In this document: positions 532 through 26,146 of the stretch, in pieces
Numbering within the stretch: the stretch's first letter is position 1
How the letters are laid out: each line of letters opens with the position of its first letter
Source of the DNA: a virus
Taxonomy: Duplodnaviria; Heunggongvirae; Uroviricota; Caudoviricetes
Virus record (IMG/VR): IMGVR_UViG_2541047843_000008
Strand: one strand, 5' to 3'
DNA: 40,690 nt
Translations under genes and position numbers: made by a program
Notes under the pieces: model-generated
What the model was told of the DNA's origin: nothing
Databases searched by the model: none
What the model saw: the letters and a program-made list of their open reading frames with translations, nothing else

Positions 532-1071
532 ATGAAGAAAGTTTTTCTTTGCGCCATCTTAGCCTCCTTAAGCTATCCGGCTATCGCCTCATCATTGCAG
601 GATCAACTCTCGGCTGTCGCAGAAGCGGAACAGCAAGGTAAAAATGAAGAGCAAAGGCAGCATGACGAATGGGTCGCGGAGCGCAACAGGGAAATCCAGC
701 AAGAGAAGCAACGTCGCGCAAACGCCCAGGCCGCGGCTAATAAAAGAGCGGCAACGGCAGCAGCGAATAAGAAAGCTCGTCAGGATAAACTGGACGCCGA
801 AGCCACTGCGGACAAAAAACGCGATCAAAGTTATGAAGATGAGCTACGTAGCTTAGAGATTCAGAAACAAAAACTGGCGCTGGCGAAAGAAGAAGCCCGC
901 GTCAAGCGCGAAAACGAATTTATCGATCAGGAACTGAAGCACAAAGCTGCGCAAACCGATGTGGTGCAATCTGAAGCTGACGCAAACAGAAATATGACTG
1001 AAGGCGGTCGCGATCTGATGAAAAGCGTGGGTAAAGCAGAAGAGAATAAATCAGATAGCTGGTTTAACTAA
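532..1071 (+). CDS. Secreted charged coiled-coil protein, function unknown
   Basis: Signal-peptide-like N-terminus MKKVFLCAILASLSYPAIAS followed by K/E/Q/A-rich low-complexity sequence; SD-like AGGAGG upstream. Confidence 0.5.
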   Translation: MKKVFLCAILASLSYPAIASSLQDQLSAVAEAEQQGKNEEQRQHDEWVAERNREIQQEKQRRANAQAAANKRAATAAANKKARQDKLDAEATADKKRDQSYEDELRSLEIQKQKLALAKEEARVKRENEFIDQELKHKAAQTDVVQSEADANRNMTEGGRDLMKSVGKAEENKSDSWFN

Positions 1072-2398: not shown

Positions 2399-2696
2399 GT
2401 TTAGACCTCGATACTTTAAAAATTTGAACGACGTTACCGCGCGTTTTAATAACCGCAGCCAGCATGACAGCGTTGATAATGACCTCAGATAAATCCACAG
2501 CCATTGGCGTACGTAACCAGATTGCATAGGCGACTCGAACAGGAATACTGGCCGCAGCAACAATCAGGAAATAAGCAAGCCATCCTCCCCACCTTCGATG
2601 TTGAGAGCCGTTACGCCGGAATGTGACAACGCGAATTGCTATGCCAGTGCAAATAACTGCATTAGTGATAAGCAAAAAAAACTCATGCGTTACCAT
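2388..2696 (-). CDS. Small two-TM membrane protein, putative holin/antiholin partner
   Basis: Two hydrophobic segments; sits between holin and endolysin with overlapping ends. Confidence 0.4.
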
Positions 2697-3087
2697 CGTC
2701 TTTTCTCCCCGGAATTAACTCGCGTGGATTATCGGAACGGTGATAGAGCCATATACCAATACGCACAGCGACAATTGCTGACACGAATGCGCCTGCAGAG
2801 AAAACAATCCCTTTTTCAAAAGAGTCCTGCGTGATGGTAGGGATCAGGCTGGCTATGCCGATAAGAATTGATGCTGCTGGTTTGTAAAAGAGAAGGCCGC
2901 AAAGAAAGCTGAGCATCGACAGGAGCACCCGGCGACGGATGGGGTACTCTACTGCAGAGGTAACAAAAATTACCGCCCCAGCCAAAGCCCCTAAAGCAAC
3001 CTCCGGAGGGACACCTGCAATAACTGCAGCAAGAGAACCAAAACTAAGCAACTGATTTAATTGCTCACTTGTTACTTGAGCAGACAT
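2683..3087 (-). CDS. Holin (three predicted TM segments, charged C-terminus)
   Basis: Three hydrophobic helices and basic/acidic C-terminal tail; first gene of lysis cassette. Confidence 0.6.
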   Translation of the reverse strand: MSAQVTSEQLNQLLSFGSLAAVIAGVPPEVALGALAGAVIFVTSAVEYPIRRRVLLSMLSFLCGLLFYKPAASILIGIASLIPTITQDSFEKGIVFSAGAFVSAIVAVRIGIWLYHRSDNPRELIPGRKDDGNA

Positions 3088-3366
3088 ACTTTCTCCTGTT
3101 TACTATCTATAAGCCAGTCAATTATTGATGACTAAACCCGCATAGTAAACCATATATGAATCATTATTGTTCCATATCATATATCTCAATAAAAGTACTA
3201 ATGATTTTACAGAACGAGCCAGCAGAGTGGGGGCAGTTGTACAGGAACCATAGACTTAATTTTGTATTTAATAATGCTATGGTGTAATAAACCTGAACAT
3301 GTATTTAAAATACGTACTGATTCATGATAGAATTCAAAGATAACTTTTCACCAACTCAGTTTTTGA

Positions 3367-3395
3367 TGCCCGCAATATTTTGCGGGCTTTTTTTT
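3367..3395 (+). terminator. Rho-independent terminator, plus-strand orientation only
   Basis: Stem GCCCGCAA / TTGCGGGC followed by 8 T on the plus strand; abuts the tailspike stop. Confidence 0.5.
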
Positions 3396-6300
3396 AACGT
3401 TCTTCCAGAGACTGAACCCGCTCTTTTATCTTATCCATTTCTCTGCGCTGCCATGCTGCCTCGATATAGAATAAGAGATCAGGTCTGACCCCCCATCTAG
3501 ATCCTGCTGGCGTTATTTCAACGCGCTCAATGATGTCTTCCATTACCATCACTGGATTATCATCCTCATCAACAATGATGCTCCCGTCATTATCAGTCAG
3601 CGGCATTTCCCTTTGGCCAGTAATGACGTCATCATATACTGCGGGATAATCGTCATAGCAAAGAAAGGCATAGCGGCATGTTGTGCTTTCTTCTTCCATG
3701 AGTCCGTGAGAAATAAGAACATCACGAAGTTGCTGCGCGATTACACCATGATGTATCCTCGCCCCTTCTTCCCCCTTTATAGCGACAGCGTTCAGCCATT
3801 TATAAGCGATATACCTGACGTCACCCCAGGCATCCAGCAATGCTTCGTCAGGAGAGACAGGCTCTGTCTTTAATGTTCCGTCACTGGTAACCACAGGATT
3901 GGAGCCAAGATAAACTGTCGAGAACCTGTTTCCCGGACCACCAAGAGCATTTACATTATCAAGATAAGGTTTAACATCTCCGTTCTCAAAAAGATGTTCG
4001 AGTGCGTTATATACCGCGCGACGTGGAGTACTGCTTCCGGAACCATGCAACGTTATCATTGCACCATCTGCTGAAGACGTTGTTTCACCGCCGCTAACGA
4101 TTAATCTCTGAGCGGTAACATCATCAGACGGTACTTTCTTCGCAATAATGGCGTAATTACCCTCAAGTTTGACTTCCGCGCGAACTTGTCCTGATGTACC
4201 TGCATGGACAGTCAGTGACTGGACGGCAACATCATCTGTGAAATCAACGGGTACAGGAACCGTCCTCACGCCTGACGTCGACATAAAAGTAGGAAGCGTT
4301 CTGTTAGGAGTGGCTCCGTAGACAAAATCCCTTGAAACAAATTCTTCCTGTTTAATTTTCACCCTGAAACAATACAAATCAGCCGGGTGACCATCGTGAA
4401 CATAAGGATATTTTCTGTTGTTATCCCCTATGCTCCATGGGTTTAGAAAGTCTTCCCCACCGAAAATGTAGTACAGCCAGTTGTCTTTGATACAAACTGA
4501 ACCAACACCAACCGCAGAGTTAACTATTCCGCCCTGATAAATCTGATCAGTAACATTAACCCACTCTACATTATCCAGACTCCACTCATTGACGTTAACT
4601 CTGGTCATAAATGTTCTTGGATAATTTCCTGCATAACGGTTATCAGGTTCTCCTCCTTCCCACTCACCAAATGCGCGCTCACTGCCAAAAATAATCAGCT
4701 CATCGCCAACTTTGGCAAAAGGAAGGTTTGAGTGATGAACATTATTTGGGAAGCGAAGAGAATTCCATGATGTACCTAAATCAGAGCTTCTGTGCAATGA
4801 ACTACCGGGTTGAGTACTTAATGTCCCCCTGGTCGTCAGATACAGAATGCCATCATAATATTTTACACATGGCTCAGATGCATTCGCCTCATATTCTACA
4901 GGTATGCGTCTGCGAACAAAGCTACCAGGAGAACCGAAAGCATCAGAGAAATAGAGTATCCCAAGCTCGCGTGGACCAATATCACCATTATGGTAGCCAA
5001 CAGCAAAACTGTTATCGCTAATCGTCGCAAAACTGTGAATCTCAGTAACAGGAGTGCTTCCGTCAACAAAAGAAGGAATAGTTCCAAGACTGGTTTTTCT
5101 CCATGGTGACGAGTGAAATGATGTGCCAAAACTCCAGTATCTACCCTCGTTATTCTGATCCACATCCTGGGTATTTTGCGTCGTAACTGTAAAGGTATTT
5201 TTATCAATAACAGTAGTCACCGTCATATTCCCGGTAACACCTGTAACACCAGAGTTTGAGAAGTTGACAAAATCACCAGCAAATAATCCGTGATCAGTAA
5301 TGCGAATATAAGCGACTTGCTGATTTGCTGCTTTCGTTATACCACCATAAACGCGAAGGCTGCGACTCATTGGGCGATCCCACAACTCTGCAACCTGCAG
5401 TTTATTTCCTCTCACGGTCCGCGTCTCAATTACAGCAAAAAGGCGATTTCTGACAACCCCCATACTCATGCAGTGATAGTTAACTGTGGGATAGTTTTCA
5501 TGTAAATCTGTAAGCCATTCCGGCGTTGTCCAGGTCTTCCCGTCATCTCCTGAGCGAACCCATGCAACATGGAGGTTATTTACACCATGGCGGTCTCCAG
5601 CCATAAAAGGCGCATAGATGACATTGTCATATACAAACGTTTTATCCTGCGTCCAGGCGTTGTACCACGGTGTATCTGTAATTTTAAATAACTCTCCCTG
5701 GATAAAATCTTCAGAAGCATAAAAAAGAGGCTGGCCCGGTATTCTCTCAAATAAAAAACGAGCATTTTTAAATCGACTGACATCCGGAAGAGTTGATACT
5801 TTAAAAGTAAGCCCTAATCCGTCAATTTTATAACCTGGAGATGAGGCTTCAAGGCACGCGCTTATTGCAGTGGAATCGTCATTTATACCATCACCAACAG
5901 CTCCAAAATCTTTGGGGCTAATAGCATCACGCATTTTATCCTGGAACGTTCGGTACACAGCCCCAGAACCATACTGAATAAACCAACCAAAACCACCAAC
6001 AACCCCGGCGATTGCAGCATCGACATAATTACGCATTGAGCGATTATTTACAGCGTCCTGCTCAAGTGATGGATCTGCAAGGTTAGAAATTTTGTTTTGC
6101 TTTGCATCGTAATATTTTGCAAGCAAAGATGGTTTCATCAATGCACGTCTGAACCACCCAAAACATTGCTGGATCAGCATCGTCAGGTAGTCAAAAGCAT
6201 CTTCATGCACTTCGGGGAAAAATTTTCCCTGATTGCGAAGGTCTGTCTCCTGCACTACATCAAGCACACGATCTATCGTAATTCGCCATCCAGCAGCAAG

Positions 6301-6617: not shown

Positions 6618-6632
6618 TTACCTTTCAGGTGA
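6618..6632. promoter_or_regulatory. Operator-like palindrome variant TTACCTTTCAGGTGA
   Basis: One-mismatch copy of the recurring TTACCT-N3-AGGTAA palindrome, between the tailspike start and a plus-strand moron. Confidence 0.4.
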
Positions 6633-6669
6633 TTTGCAAAACGTGCTGGATAGCAAACAAATTATTTGA

Positions 6670-6689
6670 TACTGTATATTTATACAGTT
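6670..6689. promoter_or_regulatory. LexA (SOS) box upstream of the small antirepressor-like gene
   Basis: TACTGTATATTTATACAGTT fits CTGT-N8-ACAG with AT-rich spacer; 20-40 nt upstream of the ATG candidates at 6695 and 6710. Confidence 0.6.
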
Positions 6690-6709
6690 ATTGCATGGAG
6701 AAGATTAAG

Positions 6710-6967
6710 ATGCAGCAGTATCACTATCCACTGGAAGACGGATTTACCGAAAGGATTCACACGCCGGGAGGCGTCAGGTCACTGGTGGAGGGATCGCACT
6801 TGATGAAATTACTCCGGGATCTCGATAAGGATGGATTTAATGTCGATGGCCCACTTGCCGAACTGACTGCACTGATTAACTACGTCACCAGCTCACAGAT
6901 GTCTATGCAGGATCTGCAAACACATCTCGACTATTGTGCCGAACAATTACGAAAACAAACCAGATAA
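6710..6967 (+). CDS. Small antirepressor-like protein: stand-alone paralog of the C-terminal domain of the neighbouring antirepressor (Tum-like candidate); alternative start 6695
   Basis: About 80 aa align with the C-terminus of the 7285..7941 product (e.g. [36 protein letters not shown]); GGAG 9 nt upstream of ATG. Confidence 0.5.
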   Translation: MQQYHYPLEDGFTERIHTPGGVRSLVEGSHLMKLLRDLDKDGFNVDGPLAELTALINYVTSSQMSMQDLQTHLDYCAEQLRKQTR

Positions 6968-6998
6968 GGTTTGCAATTACCAAGTGGAGTGCTTATAT

Positions 6999-7013
6999 TT
7001 ACCTTTTCGGTAA
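6999..7013. promoter_or_regulatory. Operator-like palindrome TTACCTTTTCGGTAA
   Basis: Copy of recurring TTACC-N5-GGTAA palindrome downstream of the small ant-like gene. Confidence 0.45.
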
Positions 7014-7104
7014 ATTTACATCGCACTCCTCTTGTGCCATAGTAATCGGGCACTGGCAAAATCCAGTGCCGGGATTGGTCTCCCGGATTACTAAGTGGCG
7101 CATA

Positions 7105-7127
7105 CCACGCCAGACGTGGTTTTTTTA
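7105..7127 (+). terminator. Rho-independent terminator after the small antirepressor-like gene
   Basis: Stem CCACG / CGTGG with 5-nt loop followed by 8 T. Confidence 0.5.
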
Positions 7128-7284
7128 TGCGTATAGCACAGTCATGCCAGAATTATGGTGGGCTGAATGGGGGTCCGAAAGGACGCCGGTACCACTTAGG
7201 CCGGTAAGACCAACTCCGTTCAGTTCACCACCATCTGATTGGTCTCAGCGGTGGTGATGTAATTCGCTAAGTGGAGACGCCATC

Positions 7285-7941
7285 ATGAACGCTCAACTCA
7301 TCCCCGTATTCAACGGCACTATATCTAACGAAACAGCCCTACTTTGTAATGCCCGCGATCTGCACGCTTTTTTAGGTGTTAAAAAGGTGTTTGCAGCATG
7401 GATTACAAATCGCATATCAGAATACGAATTCATTGAAAATCAAGACTATATTTTGCTTTCCAATTTGGGAAAGCAAACATCTGGTAGAGGCGGCCACAAC
7501 CGCAAAGAGTACCACCTCACCCTTGATACAGCCAAAGAGCTGGCGATGGTCGAGCGTAACGAAAAAGGTCGCCAGGTGCGACGCTACTTCATTGAATGCG
7601 AGAAACGTTTAAGACAACAAGAAACAAAAGTGGAGAAGGTCTTGTCAGGCTTCATGCCCGCCATAATGGAGGCGATCAAGCTGGAAGACAAAAAAGAATA
7701 CAGCGCCCCACTGAAGCCCGGCTACCGCAGCCTGATTCATTCGCCGTCTGGTGTTCTCGGCCTGACGGAGAACTCACTGCTGATGAATCTGCTGAACCAG
7801 TTACAGGACGACGGGCACGACGTATCGGGCGCGGCGGCGGAGCTGACCACCATGTTCTGCTACATCGTCGGTGTGAGCAAATGCCTGCGTGATATCCAGA
7901 CCCACGCGGAGTACATCAACGACAAGGCAGGGTTCTTCTGA
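7285..7941 (+). CDS. Antirepressor-like protein (N-terminal Ant-type domain plus C-terminal domain shared with 6710..6967)
   Basis: N-terminus resembles phage antirepressor N-terminal domains as recalled; SD GGAGA upstream; C-terminal paralogy seen directly. Confidence 0.6.
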
Positions 7942-7949
7942 CGGGCGGT

Positions 7950-7972
7950 GGCACAGGGATGTGCCTTTAAAT
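7950..7972 (+). terminator. Putative terminator after antirepressor gene
   Basis: Stem GGCACA / TGTGCC with GGGA loop followed by TTTAAATAATT. Confidence 0.4.
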
Positions 7973-8013
7973 AATTCTGTACAGATTGCAGACCGGGGGT
8001 GAATAGCGTACTA

Positions 8014-8028
8014 TTACCTTAAAGGTAA
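8014..8028. promoter_or_regulatory. Operator palindrome TTACCTTAAAGGTAA upstream of the two-gene cassette
   Basis: Perfect TTACCT-N3-AGGTAA palindrome 43 nt upstream of the ATG at 8071. Confidence 0.5.
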
Positions 8029-8070
8029 ACCTGTTTTTATTTTATACCTGTAACTTACCGGAGATTAAAG

Positions 8071-8397
8071 ATGACAAAACTTGGATTCGTGATGAGAGGT
8101 CCGGTAAGAAGCGGAACTCATGCAAAGCGTAGCAAGAGTCGTATTTTTACTGGTAAGGTTGTAGCACGTAAATCAGCTATTGGCTCGTTCAATAGTGAAA
8201 ATGCGGCATTGCGCCATATTTTTATCAGCACAAAGCCAAGAGCATCCGCTGATGTGCATACAATGTCTATTCCTATCACAAAGAATATCAAGCGGATAAA
8301 AAAGCTCTCATCTGCAGAATCAAAAGAGATATCTTTCCGCCAGCTTAACTCATTAGAAACGCATATGAAGGAAGAGGAATTCGATGTTTTTGAGTGA
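8071..8397 (+). CDS. Hypothetical basic protein, first gene of unassigned two-gene cassette
   Basis: ATG with GGAG SD; K/R/S-rich N-terminus; AT-rich moron-like composition. Confidence 0.5.
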   Translation: MTKLGFVMRGPVRSGTHAKRSKSRIFTGKVVARKSAIGSFNSENAALRHIFISTKPRASADVHTMSIPITKNIKRIKKLSSAESKEISFRQLNSLETHMKEEEFDVFE

Positions 8398-8896
8398 GTA
8401 TAGCGGGAAGGTTATACCTACTGGTGAGTTTAAAACTGATGACTTTCTGATTTCGCTAAAAGATGCTTTTAAACAACACTGGCGTCATGGTCATCATCCT
8501 GATCTGGGAAAAGATACTCTTTTTGAAAGACCAGACGAAGTATTAGGCTTCCATCTCAGAAAGGTTCATGTCAATATTGGTGAATATGCATCATATTCAT
8601 ACTCATGTACTGAACAGTGTTGGGATGAGTGGTCATATGGATTGATTGATGAACAAGGAAATTACAGGCCAAAACCAACCAGTAACGCATATCTCATATA
8701 TGCAGTCAATGAAATAAGAGATGCAGCCTTACTAGCTTATTGGGACCCGCCCGCACACACCAAAGCTAACGCAAAAGTTTGGATGGATTCCGTATTGAAT
8801 TTCACAAAATTATTTCATGAACGAACGAATACAGCTCCACTTAGTAGAAATGTTTATCCGTGGGATTATTCGTACAAATCCAAAAAGCCTGCATAG
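8384..8896 (+). CDS. Hypothetical protein, second gene of cassette (His-rich segment HWRHGHHPD)
   Basis: ORF overlaps upstream gene end by 14 nt (translational coupling); no recognisable family. Confidence 0.5.
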   Translation: MFLSEYSGKVIPTGEFKTDDFLISLKDAFKQHWRHGHHPDLGKDTLFERPDEVLGFHLRKVHVNIGEYASYSYSCTEQCWDEWSYGLIDEQGNYRPKPTSNAYLIYAVNEIRDAALLAYWDPPAHTKANAKVWMDSVLNFTKLFHERTNTAPLSRNVYPWDYSYKSKKPA

Positions 8897-9161: not shown

Positions 9162-9170
9162 TGTGACATG

Positions 9171-26069: not shown

Positions 26070-26146
26070 GTGGCATTAGCTCAGTCGGACAGAGCAACCG
26101 CCTTCTAAGCGGTTGGTCGCAGGTTCGAATCCTGCATGCCACGCCA
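26070..26146 (+). tRNA. tRNA-Arg (anticodon UCU, reads AGA), phage-encoded
   Basis: Cloverleaf read by hand: acceptor GTGGCAT/ATGCCAC, D-arm GCTC..GAGC, anticodon loop CUUCUAA, T-arm GCAGGTTCGAATCCTGC, discriminator G, CCA end. Confidence 0.9.

Follow-up and report, generated by a model that had tools for sequence, protein, structure and literature searches.

A candidate anti-late transcription unit between the tailspike and holin genes of an epsilon15-like prophage of K1 Escherichia coli

Why does a transcription terminator that faces the plus strand lie in a stretch of DNA with a minus-strand gene on either side? The locus that raises this question is part of the window, the whole 40.7-kb stretch of DNA analyzed here, which is an epsilon15-like (Uetakevirus) prophage of K1 Escherichia coli. 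A first-pass annotation made from the sequence alone had described an AT-rich spacer of about 300 bp between minus-strand holin and tailspike genes (Table 1), and had proposed that a small RNA or micro-protein is transcribed there against the late operon. The description of the spacer was borne out. It measures 306 bp (positions 3088 to 3393) and has a GC content of 33%, compared with ∼47% in its flanks, and no gene is annotated within it in phage vB_EcoP_ZX5 or in the seven E. coli genomes that were opened.

The spacer is 98.7% identical in vB_EcoP_ZX5 and was found at 97 to 99% identity in 72 of 5,426 complete E. coli genomes, always beside an endosialidase gene. Named carriers include IHE3034, APEC O1, APEC O18, CE10 (O7:K1), IAI39, and VR50, and several of the carrying strains are labeled K1 in their records. 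In the hit tables for the 72 genomes, the tailspike coding sequence was the only one listed beneath the match; spacer searches otherwise returned only near-identical, endosialidase-linked copies. Two spacer copies each were present in NZ_CM142769.1, NZ_CM142779.1, and NZ_CP070111.1, which suggests that each of these three chromosomes carries two related endosialidase prophages.

Table 1. Observed and predicted features of the tailspike-to-holin interval and its flanks, in window coordinates
Feature	Position	Strand	Description
Holin-family membrane protein, 134 aa	2683..3087	minus	PHROG 198; first gene of the lysis cassette
Holin upstream leader, family-conserved	3088..3165	minus	Ends at the CCATATATG palindrome
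ORF, 43 aa, judged non-coding	3156..3287	plus	No Shine-Dalgarno sequence; start-loss and nonsense alleles
Module-specific segment	3166..3438		AT-rich DNA, terminator, and last ∼15 tailspike codons
Candidate sigma-70 promoter	3305..3333	plus	TTAAAA-17-TAGAAT with TGn extended −10 (TGATAGAAT); 9/12 consensus matches
Predicted non-coding RNA, 56 nt	3340..3395	plus	28-nt unstructured 5′ part ending in UUUUUGAU, hairpin, U8
Terminator hairpin	3368..3387	plus	GCCCGCAA-TATT-TTGCGGGC; 8-bp stem (6 GC pairs), 4-nt loop
T8 tract (terminator U-tail)	3388..3395	plus	Covers the last 2 nt of the opposite-strand tailspike stop codon
Endosialidase tailspike, 1039 aa	3394..6513	minus	Epsilon15-type N terminus, intramolecular-chaperone C terminus

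The terminator hairpin and its variation

The strong hairpin with an 8-T run that the first-pass annotation had assigned to the plus strand only was upheld by folding, by a pattern scan, and by shuffling. As RNA, the hairpin together with the T8 tract has a folding energy of −15.6 kcal/mol (z = −4.4 to −4.7 relative to shuffles). A scan of both strands of the window that required a stem of 8 bp or more, 6 or more GC pairs in it, and a following run of 8 or more T's recovered a single site, 3368 to 3395, and dinucleotide-preserving shuffles of the window yielded an equal terminator in 0 of 300 cases. The T8 tract is the only run of eight T's on the plus strand of the window. Viewed from the minus strand, the stem has A8 before it and AUCAAAAAC after it, and thus the terminator is predicted to work in one direction only, rightward. 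The sequence hallmarks of intrinsic termination (a GC-rich stem, a short loop, and, directly afterward, a U-tract of at least 6) are all found at 3368 to 3395, and on its upstream side the terminator adjoins U5GAU, not an A-tract. Judged by its sequence, this element is a genuine, strong, one-directional Rho-independent terminator for the plus strand. No terminator for the minus strand was found within the spacer.

A gapped pattern that fits this locus matched 21 viral contigs, all with the same 71-nt spacing, and the exact terminator pattern, searched in viral contigs and in GTDB species genomes, returned only unrelated look-alikes in distant bacteria beyond this locus.

To describe natural variation, we compared 27 copies of the spacer, which represent 19 haplotypes and are 97 to 99% identical. 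Apart from its closing pair, which was G-C in 2 copies and A·C in 25, the stem was the same in every copy, and the length of the T-run ranged from 7 to 9. The candidate promoter was likewise invariant (27 of 27). Since the copies are so similar, retention of promoter, stem, and T-run proves nothing about function. Of the 27 copies, 7 had TATT as the loop (3376 to 3379) and 20 had AATA, the exact reverse complement of TATT, a difference that looks like one inversion of the palindrome's loop rather than two independent substitutions. The same TATT/AATA split tracks a C/T split at position 3417. Between copies, the spacer diverged by 0.3 to 2.9%, compared with 0.13 to 0.53% for the adjoining tailspike gene.

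The conversion slot and its module boundaries

On its left side, the spacer begins with DNA that belongs to the family as a whole. The holin leader could be aligned with epsilon15, phiV10, TL-2011b, Tyrion, and BUCT554, with homology stopping near 3165; on these alignments, the end of the leader marks the left boundary of an exchangeable tailspike/conversion module. A minus-strand promoter-like site, TTTACT-17-AATAAT, is located within the leader at 3149 to 3121. To the right of the boundary, searches of phages, the 5,426 E. coli genomes, GTDB species genomes, and fetched Uetakevirus loci (the last by blastn) found no relatives of the segment from 3166 to 3438 outside the prophage lineage.

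The right end of this segment lies inside the tailspike gene. This gene shares 99% identity with its endosialidase counterpart in CUS-3, a P22-like phage, and the identity ends near 3438. A mosaic junction is visible at ∼3423 to 3438, in the 3′ end of the tailspike gene, beyond which the two sequences are unrelated. The break in identity at this point indicates that the body of the endosialidase has been exchanged between two phage genera. We considered CUS-3 as the source of the spacer itself and rejected it: the homology stops ∼45 nt inside the gene, and no such hairpin is present in CUS-3. Downstream of its endosialidase gene, CUS-3 carries neuO on the same strand.

Comparison of related phages suggests what the interval is for. 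From the gene content of its relatives, the interval from tailspike to holin is the lysogenic-conversion slot of the genus, and the spacer of the window occupies this position, between the tailspike gene and a holin-family gene. Slot length varied from 111 to 3126 bp among 80 IMG/VR loci. In this slot, the anti-late strand, opposite to that of the late genes, encodes an O-antigen-ligase-family protein and the alpha-polymerase inhibitor (gp21/gp22) in epsilon15, oac in phiV10, an O-antigen acetylase in Tyrion, and gtrABC in BUCT554; anti-late cargo was also present in many of the 80 IMG/VR loci. In TL-2011b, PAS61, and phiv142-3, the cargo lies on the late strand. Given the anti-late cargo of these relatives, a plus-strand transcription unit at this place would be the family norm and no anomaly. 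In epsilon15, phiV10, Tyrion, and BUCT554, a TGn-extended −10 element is positionally conserved 27 to 38 nt before the start of the cargo. The same four phages carry a hairpin at the junction with the tailspike gene, in which the T-run lies on the tailspike strand, whereas in the window it lies on the opposite strand.

The slot of the window is of the short kind. No glycan-modifying or polymerase-affecting gene was detected in it, and it holds no intact ORF of at least 60 aa. Among the sampled short slots without ORFs (111 to 428 bp), only that of the window has a strong anti-late terminator, which suggests an element peculiar to the endosialidase module and points to rightward transcription in the spacer. 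By the same token, no unit comparable to that of the window was found in other short slots of the family, so that a small RNA (sRNA) encoded here would be without comparative support. Three other IMG/VR loci (L064, L083, and L087) have AT-rich slots of 406, 325, and 354 bp, respectively, with no ORF of at least 60 aa except for a 63-aa frame in L087, and their tailspikes share the intramolecular-chaperone type of C terminus at 31 to 39% identity. Most modules of the O-antigen type carry conversion genes, unlike those of the chaperone type.

The candidate promoter and the predicted RNA

We asked what a plus-strand transcript ending at 3395 could encode. The first-pass annotation had placed an ORF of 42 codons at about 3156 to 3284; a plus-strand ORF is indeed present, with a slightly different extent and length (Table 1). 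This ORF lacks a Shine-Dalgarno sequence. Among the 27 copies, a G-to-A change at 3158 destroys its ATG in one, and a G-to-A change at 3230 converts the TGG codon of W25 to a TGA stop in four. It matched no PHROG, and a search of 5.8 billion proteins gave a single hit, which was the same locus. We therefore judge the ORF to be non-coding, and the micro-protein that had been offered as one of two options is essentially excluded. The rest of that proposal fared better: the plus-strand terminator stands without an annotated gene, and an anti-late unit is normal for the family.

The best plus-strand promoter candidate, on which a tool-based scan and a rough position-weight scan agreed, is the site at 3305 to 3333, located 34 nt ahead of the hairpin. 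With the rough matrix, its score ranked second among 81,318 window positions; as a positive control, the matrix also picked out the promoter of isrK, which ends 7 nt short of this Rfam-confirmed RNA (at 7050). In dinucleotide shuffles of the AT-rich region from 3166 to 3360, however, an equal score arose in 5.9% of cases (p about 0.06). A near-palindrome, ATGTATTTAAAATACGT, overlaps the −35 element of the candidate promoter at 3300 to 3316 and could be an operator. It falls within a stretch of 107 nt (3231 to 3337) that shows zero variation among the 27 copies, which by a rough estimate is borderline unusual.

From this promoter and the terminator end at 3395, we predict a transcript that starts near 3340 and is 56 nt long. 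The first-pass annotation had anticipated ∼100 to 250 nt, a length at odds with the position of the sole good plus-strand promoter. The predicted RNA corresponds to NC_017628.1 2884191-2884246 (plus strand) in IHE3034 and to NC_008563.1 2741487-2741542 (plus strand) in APEC O1. An Hfq-binding module consists of a terminator hairpin, a long 3′ poly(U), and a U-rich stretch before the hairpin (Ishikawa 2012 and Otaka 2011, as cited in PMC4104026), and the predicted RNA shows this layout in its sequence (UUUUUGAU, hairpin, U8). A conserved seed, as expected of an Hfq-dependent sRNA, was not found: two positions of the putative seed vary among the copies, 3352 (C in 13, A in 14) and 3358 (where only the window has A). 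In all, 6 of the roughly 15 variable sites of the spacer fall within the body of the predicted RNA, these two among them.

Searches for family members and targets gave largely negative results. No Rfam family reached threshold on positions 2600 to 3900 at E ≤ 10, where sub-threshold hits to tsr26, RprA, Esr41, RyhB, and GcvB were driven by the terminator. Potential targets of the 28-nt 5′ region, sought in 112 translation-start regions of the window, were no better than those of shuffled seeds, and pairing of this region with isrK, C4, the holin leader, and the start regions of ant and the tailspike gene was likewise at the level of shuffled seeds. In the literature, no expression data were found for this prophage or locus, and the ZX5 paper is silent on the spacer.

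Considering the terminator together with its surroundings, most likely it belongs to an anti-late unit that fills the conversion (moron) slot of this K1-specific epsilon15-like prophage. Tentatively, and with somewhat less than even confidence, we propose that this miniature unit yields a non-coding RNA of ∼56 nt. The predicted extended −10 promoter would set the start of transcription near 3340, and the RNA would end in the U-tail at 3395; its 28-nt unstructured 5′ region, U-rich stretch, hairpin, and U8 would give it the layout of Hfq-binding sRNAs and of AsxR and AgvB. That the promoter fires and the RNA accumulates is what we infer from the sequence. Several lines of evidence argue for this proposal: the promoter candidate scores second best in the window; the TGn-extended −10 element is in the style of the relatives, with a terminator following here in place of an ORF; the one-way terminator is far beyond chance; the slot is an anti-late conversion slot; the upstream flank of the hairpin is U-rich; AsxR and AgvB set a precedent for sRNAs in moron sites; and the prophage already carries isrK and C4. 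The frequency with which shuffles match the promoter score, the variability of the RNA body, and the lack of an Rfam family and of an in-phage target weaken it.

How such an RNA might act is a matter of speculation. The predicted RNA would cover no more of the tailspike gene than 2 nt of its stop codon; the rest of its length would face 3′ untranslated or intercistronic RNA. In cis, its perfect complementarity to the late transcript just past the tailspike stop codon might lead to RNase III cleavage, or its transcription might collide with late read-through into the holin genes. In trans, it might act on host RNAs. It is a long shot that in K1 members the slot holds a 56-nt Hfq-type sRNA instead of a receptor-modifying enzyme, and that this sRNA would bring about conversion or protection from superinfection either as an anti-sRNA or through host messages, such as those of genes for capsule or sialic acid.

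The closest precedents are AsxR and AgvB, sRNAs of 51 to 60 nt from prophages of enterohemorrhagic E. coli (EHEC) that were confirmed by Northern blotting, sit in moron insertion sites convergent with the late operon, and are built from a variable 5′ end and a terminator (Tree et al. 2014, PMC4104026). The predicted RNA resembles them in its length of 56 nt, its unstructured 5′ part followed by a terminator, its position in a conversion slot, and its anti-late orientation, but has no sequence or structure homology to either. Covariance models for AsxR (RF02703) and AgvB (RF02702), which cover a conserved 3′ region of ∼42 nt, gave no hit on positions 2600 to 3900 at E ≤ 10; as a positive control, the Rfam AsxR model detected its RNA in phage 933W, 3′ of stx2B in the anti-late moron arrangement, at 88 bits. 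The settings differ as well: AsxR and AgvB belong to lambdoid phages and a slot downstream of PR′, whereas the window is a Uetakevirus with a slot between tailspike and holin. If real, the RNA would represent a type of RNA that has been described before in other prophages.

Other known systems are more distant. Lambda OOP and P22 sar are short antisense RNAs with their own promoter and an intrinsic terminator, directed against a phage operon; OOP overlaps the end of the cII coding sequence, and sar overlaps the ribosome-binding site of ant. The predicted RNA is similarly short, opposed to an operon, and potentially able to act on a complementary message in an RNase III-dependent manner. In contrast to OOP and sar, it would overlap just the end of a stop codon and intergenic RNA, and it is not homologous to them. 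With the conversion cassettes of epsilon15, phiV10, BUCT554, and Tyrion, the unit shares the slot, the anti-late orientation, a predicted extended −10 element, and AT-richness, but it has no protein cargo, its promoter is not positionally homologous, and the T-run at its junction lies on the opposite strand. A weak covariance-model likeness to Esr41 (RF02676) stems from the terminator and U-tail; with 21.3 bits where the gathering score is 102, the predicted RNA is not a member of that family.

Alternative explanations and other elements of the prophage

A serious rival, which ranks second after the 56-nt sRNA and which we regard as unlikely but well short of dismissible, is that of a relic: a conversion cassette that lost its coding part, or the recombination that brought the endosialidase gene into this phage, would have left behind the terminator and perhaps the promoter, nothing functional would be made today, and any transcripts would be noise. 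Modules are often exchanged in this slot, as its range of lengths and its many AT-rich versions without ORFs attest, and the segment from 3166 to 3438 is bounded by two recombination junctions. The greater variability of the spacer relative to its flanks and the nonsense and start-loss alleles of the 43-aa ORF also fit a relic, in so young a lineage conservation is no argument for function, and ZX5 lysogeny had no detectable host phenotype (PMC9782041). Three points speak against a relic. Across phages, E. coli and GTDB genomes, Uetakevirus loci, and viral contigs, no cargo-bearing relative was found that ends in the terminator of the window; a clean deletion that left a top-ranked promoter 34 nt before the strongest terminator of the window would be a coincidence; and the U-rich 5′ flank resembles that of an sRNA terminator, not that of an mRNA terminator.

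It is improbable, in our assessment, that the transcript is instead a longer plus-strand RNA of about 110 to 280 nt, which would start at a weaker promoter further left and end at 3395, as the first-pass annotation had envisaged. Promoter-like sites do exist at 3256 to 3283, 3125 to 3153, and 3076 to 3106, and the cargo promoter of the relatives lies nearer to the holin gene. However, the scores of these sites (6.9 to 8.0) are at the background level of AT-rich DNA, for which the best site in shuffles averages 8.9; the fold of the 313-nt plus strand is ordinary (z = −1.5); and the cargo-promoter region of the family is not conserved in the window.

Somewhat less probable again is a role as an insulator, in which the terminator would make no product and would only block spurious plus-strand transcription of the spacer from entering the 3.1-kb tailspike gene antisense. 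Such a role would suit the many promoter-like sites on both strands of this AT-rich DNA and the placement of the terminator exactly at the tailspike stop codon. Yet most other short slots of the family lack such a terminator, and in the cargo-bearing relatives the junction hairpin faces the tailspike strand, so that antisense read-through is evidently tolerated.

The hairpin might also act on the late, minus-strand RNA as a 3′ stabilizer or processing signal for the tailspike message, with the T8 tract being incidental. Its minus-strand fold is equally good (−15.0 kcal/mol), it starts 6 nt past the tailspike stop codon in the minus-strand sense, and hairpins occur at the same junction in the relatives. 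Their T-run is on the tailspike strand, whereas the window has A8 there, and a perfect T8 on the other strand is hardly incidental; we therefore consider this explanation very improbable as an alternative, although a late-RNA role is compatible with the 56-nt sRNA. Least credible of all is translation of the 43-aa ORF from an mRNA that ends at the terminator: one gene caller did predict the ORF once, but its ATG lies in the CCATATATG palindrome, which is conserved across the family for other reasons, and the signal, allele, and homology data given above speak against it.

If the 56-nt RNA is real, very short prophage sRNAs in moron sites would extend from the lambdoid phages of EHEC to another genus, one harbored by extraintestinal K1 E. 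coli, among them neonatal meningitis, avian pathogenic, and urinary strains, and the locus would provide a concrete case for the question of whether a conversion slot can hold RNA cargo. If it is a relic, module swapping leaves behind promoter and terminator debris, a possible source of new sRNAs. In either event, the general understanding of these phages would be unchanged.

Two noncoding RNAs were detected elsewhere in the prophage at Rfam gathering level: the Hfq-binding RNA isrK (7050 to 7126, plus strand, 67.7 bits) and the C4 antisense RNA (7151 to 7235, plus strand, 61.2 bits). Both lie directly upstream of an antirepressor ORF (7285..7941), and the arrangement looks like an immunity module of the P1/P7 c4-ant or Gifsy isrK-anrP type. 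They are part of a plus-strand block (6629 to 8896) that comprises a 112-aa ORF, isrK, C4, the antirepressor, and two more ORFs, and that splits the structural late genes (28958 to 9664, minus strand) from the tailspike and lysis genes (6513 to 1290, minus strand). A minus-strand terminator-like site is located at 9162 to 9145. Given this site and the plus-strand block, the tailspike and lysis genes may form a separate operon. At or near the end of the prophage, between the spanin gene and a host-like gene (532..1071; DUF5384 in the TL-2011b record), we observed a bidirectional terminator-like hairpin (1115 to 1138) with an A-run, a stem, and a T-run on both strands. Within the late-gene region, the anti-late strand carries a tRNA gene (26070 to 26143, plus strand, 73 bits).
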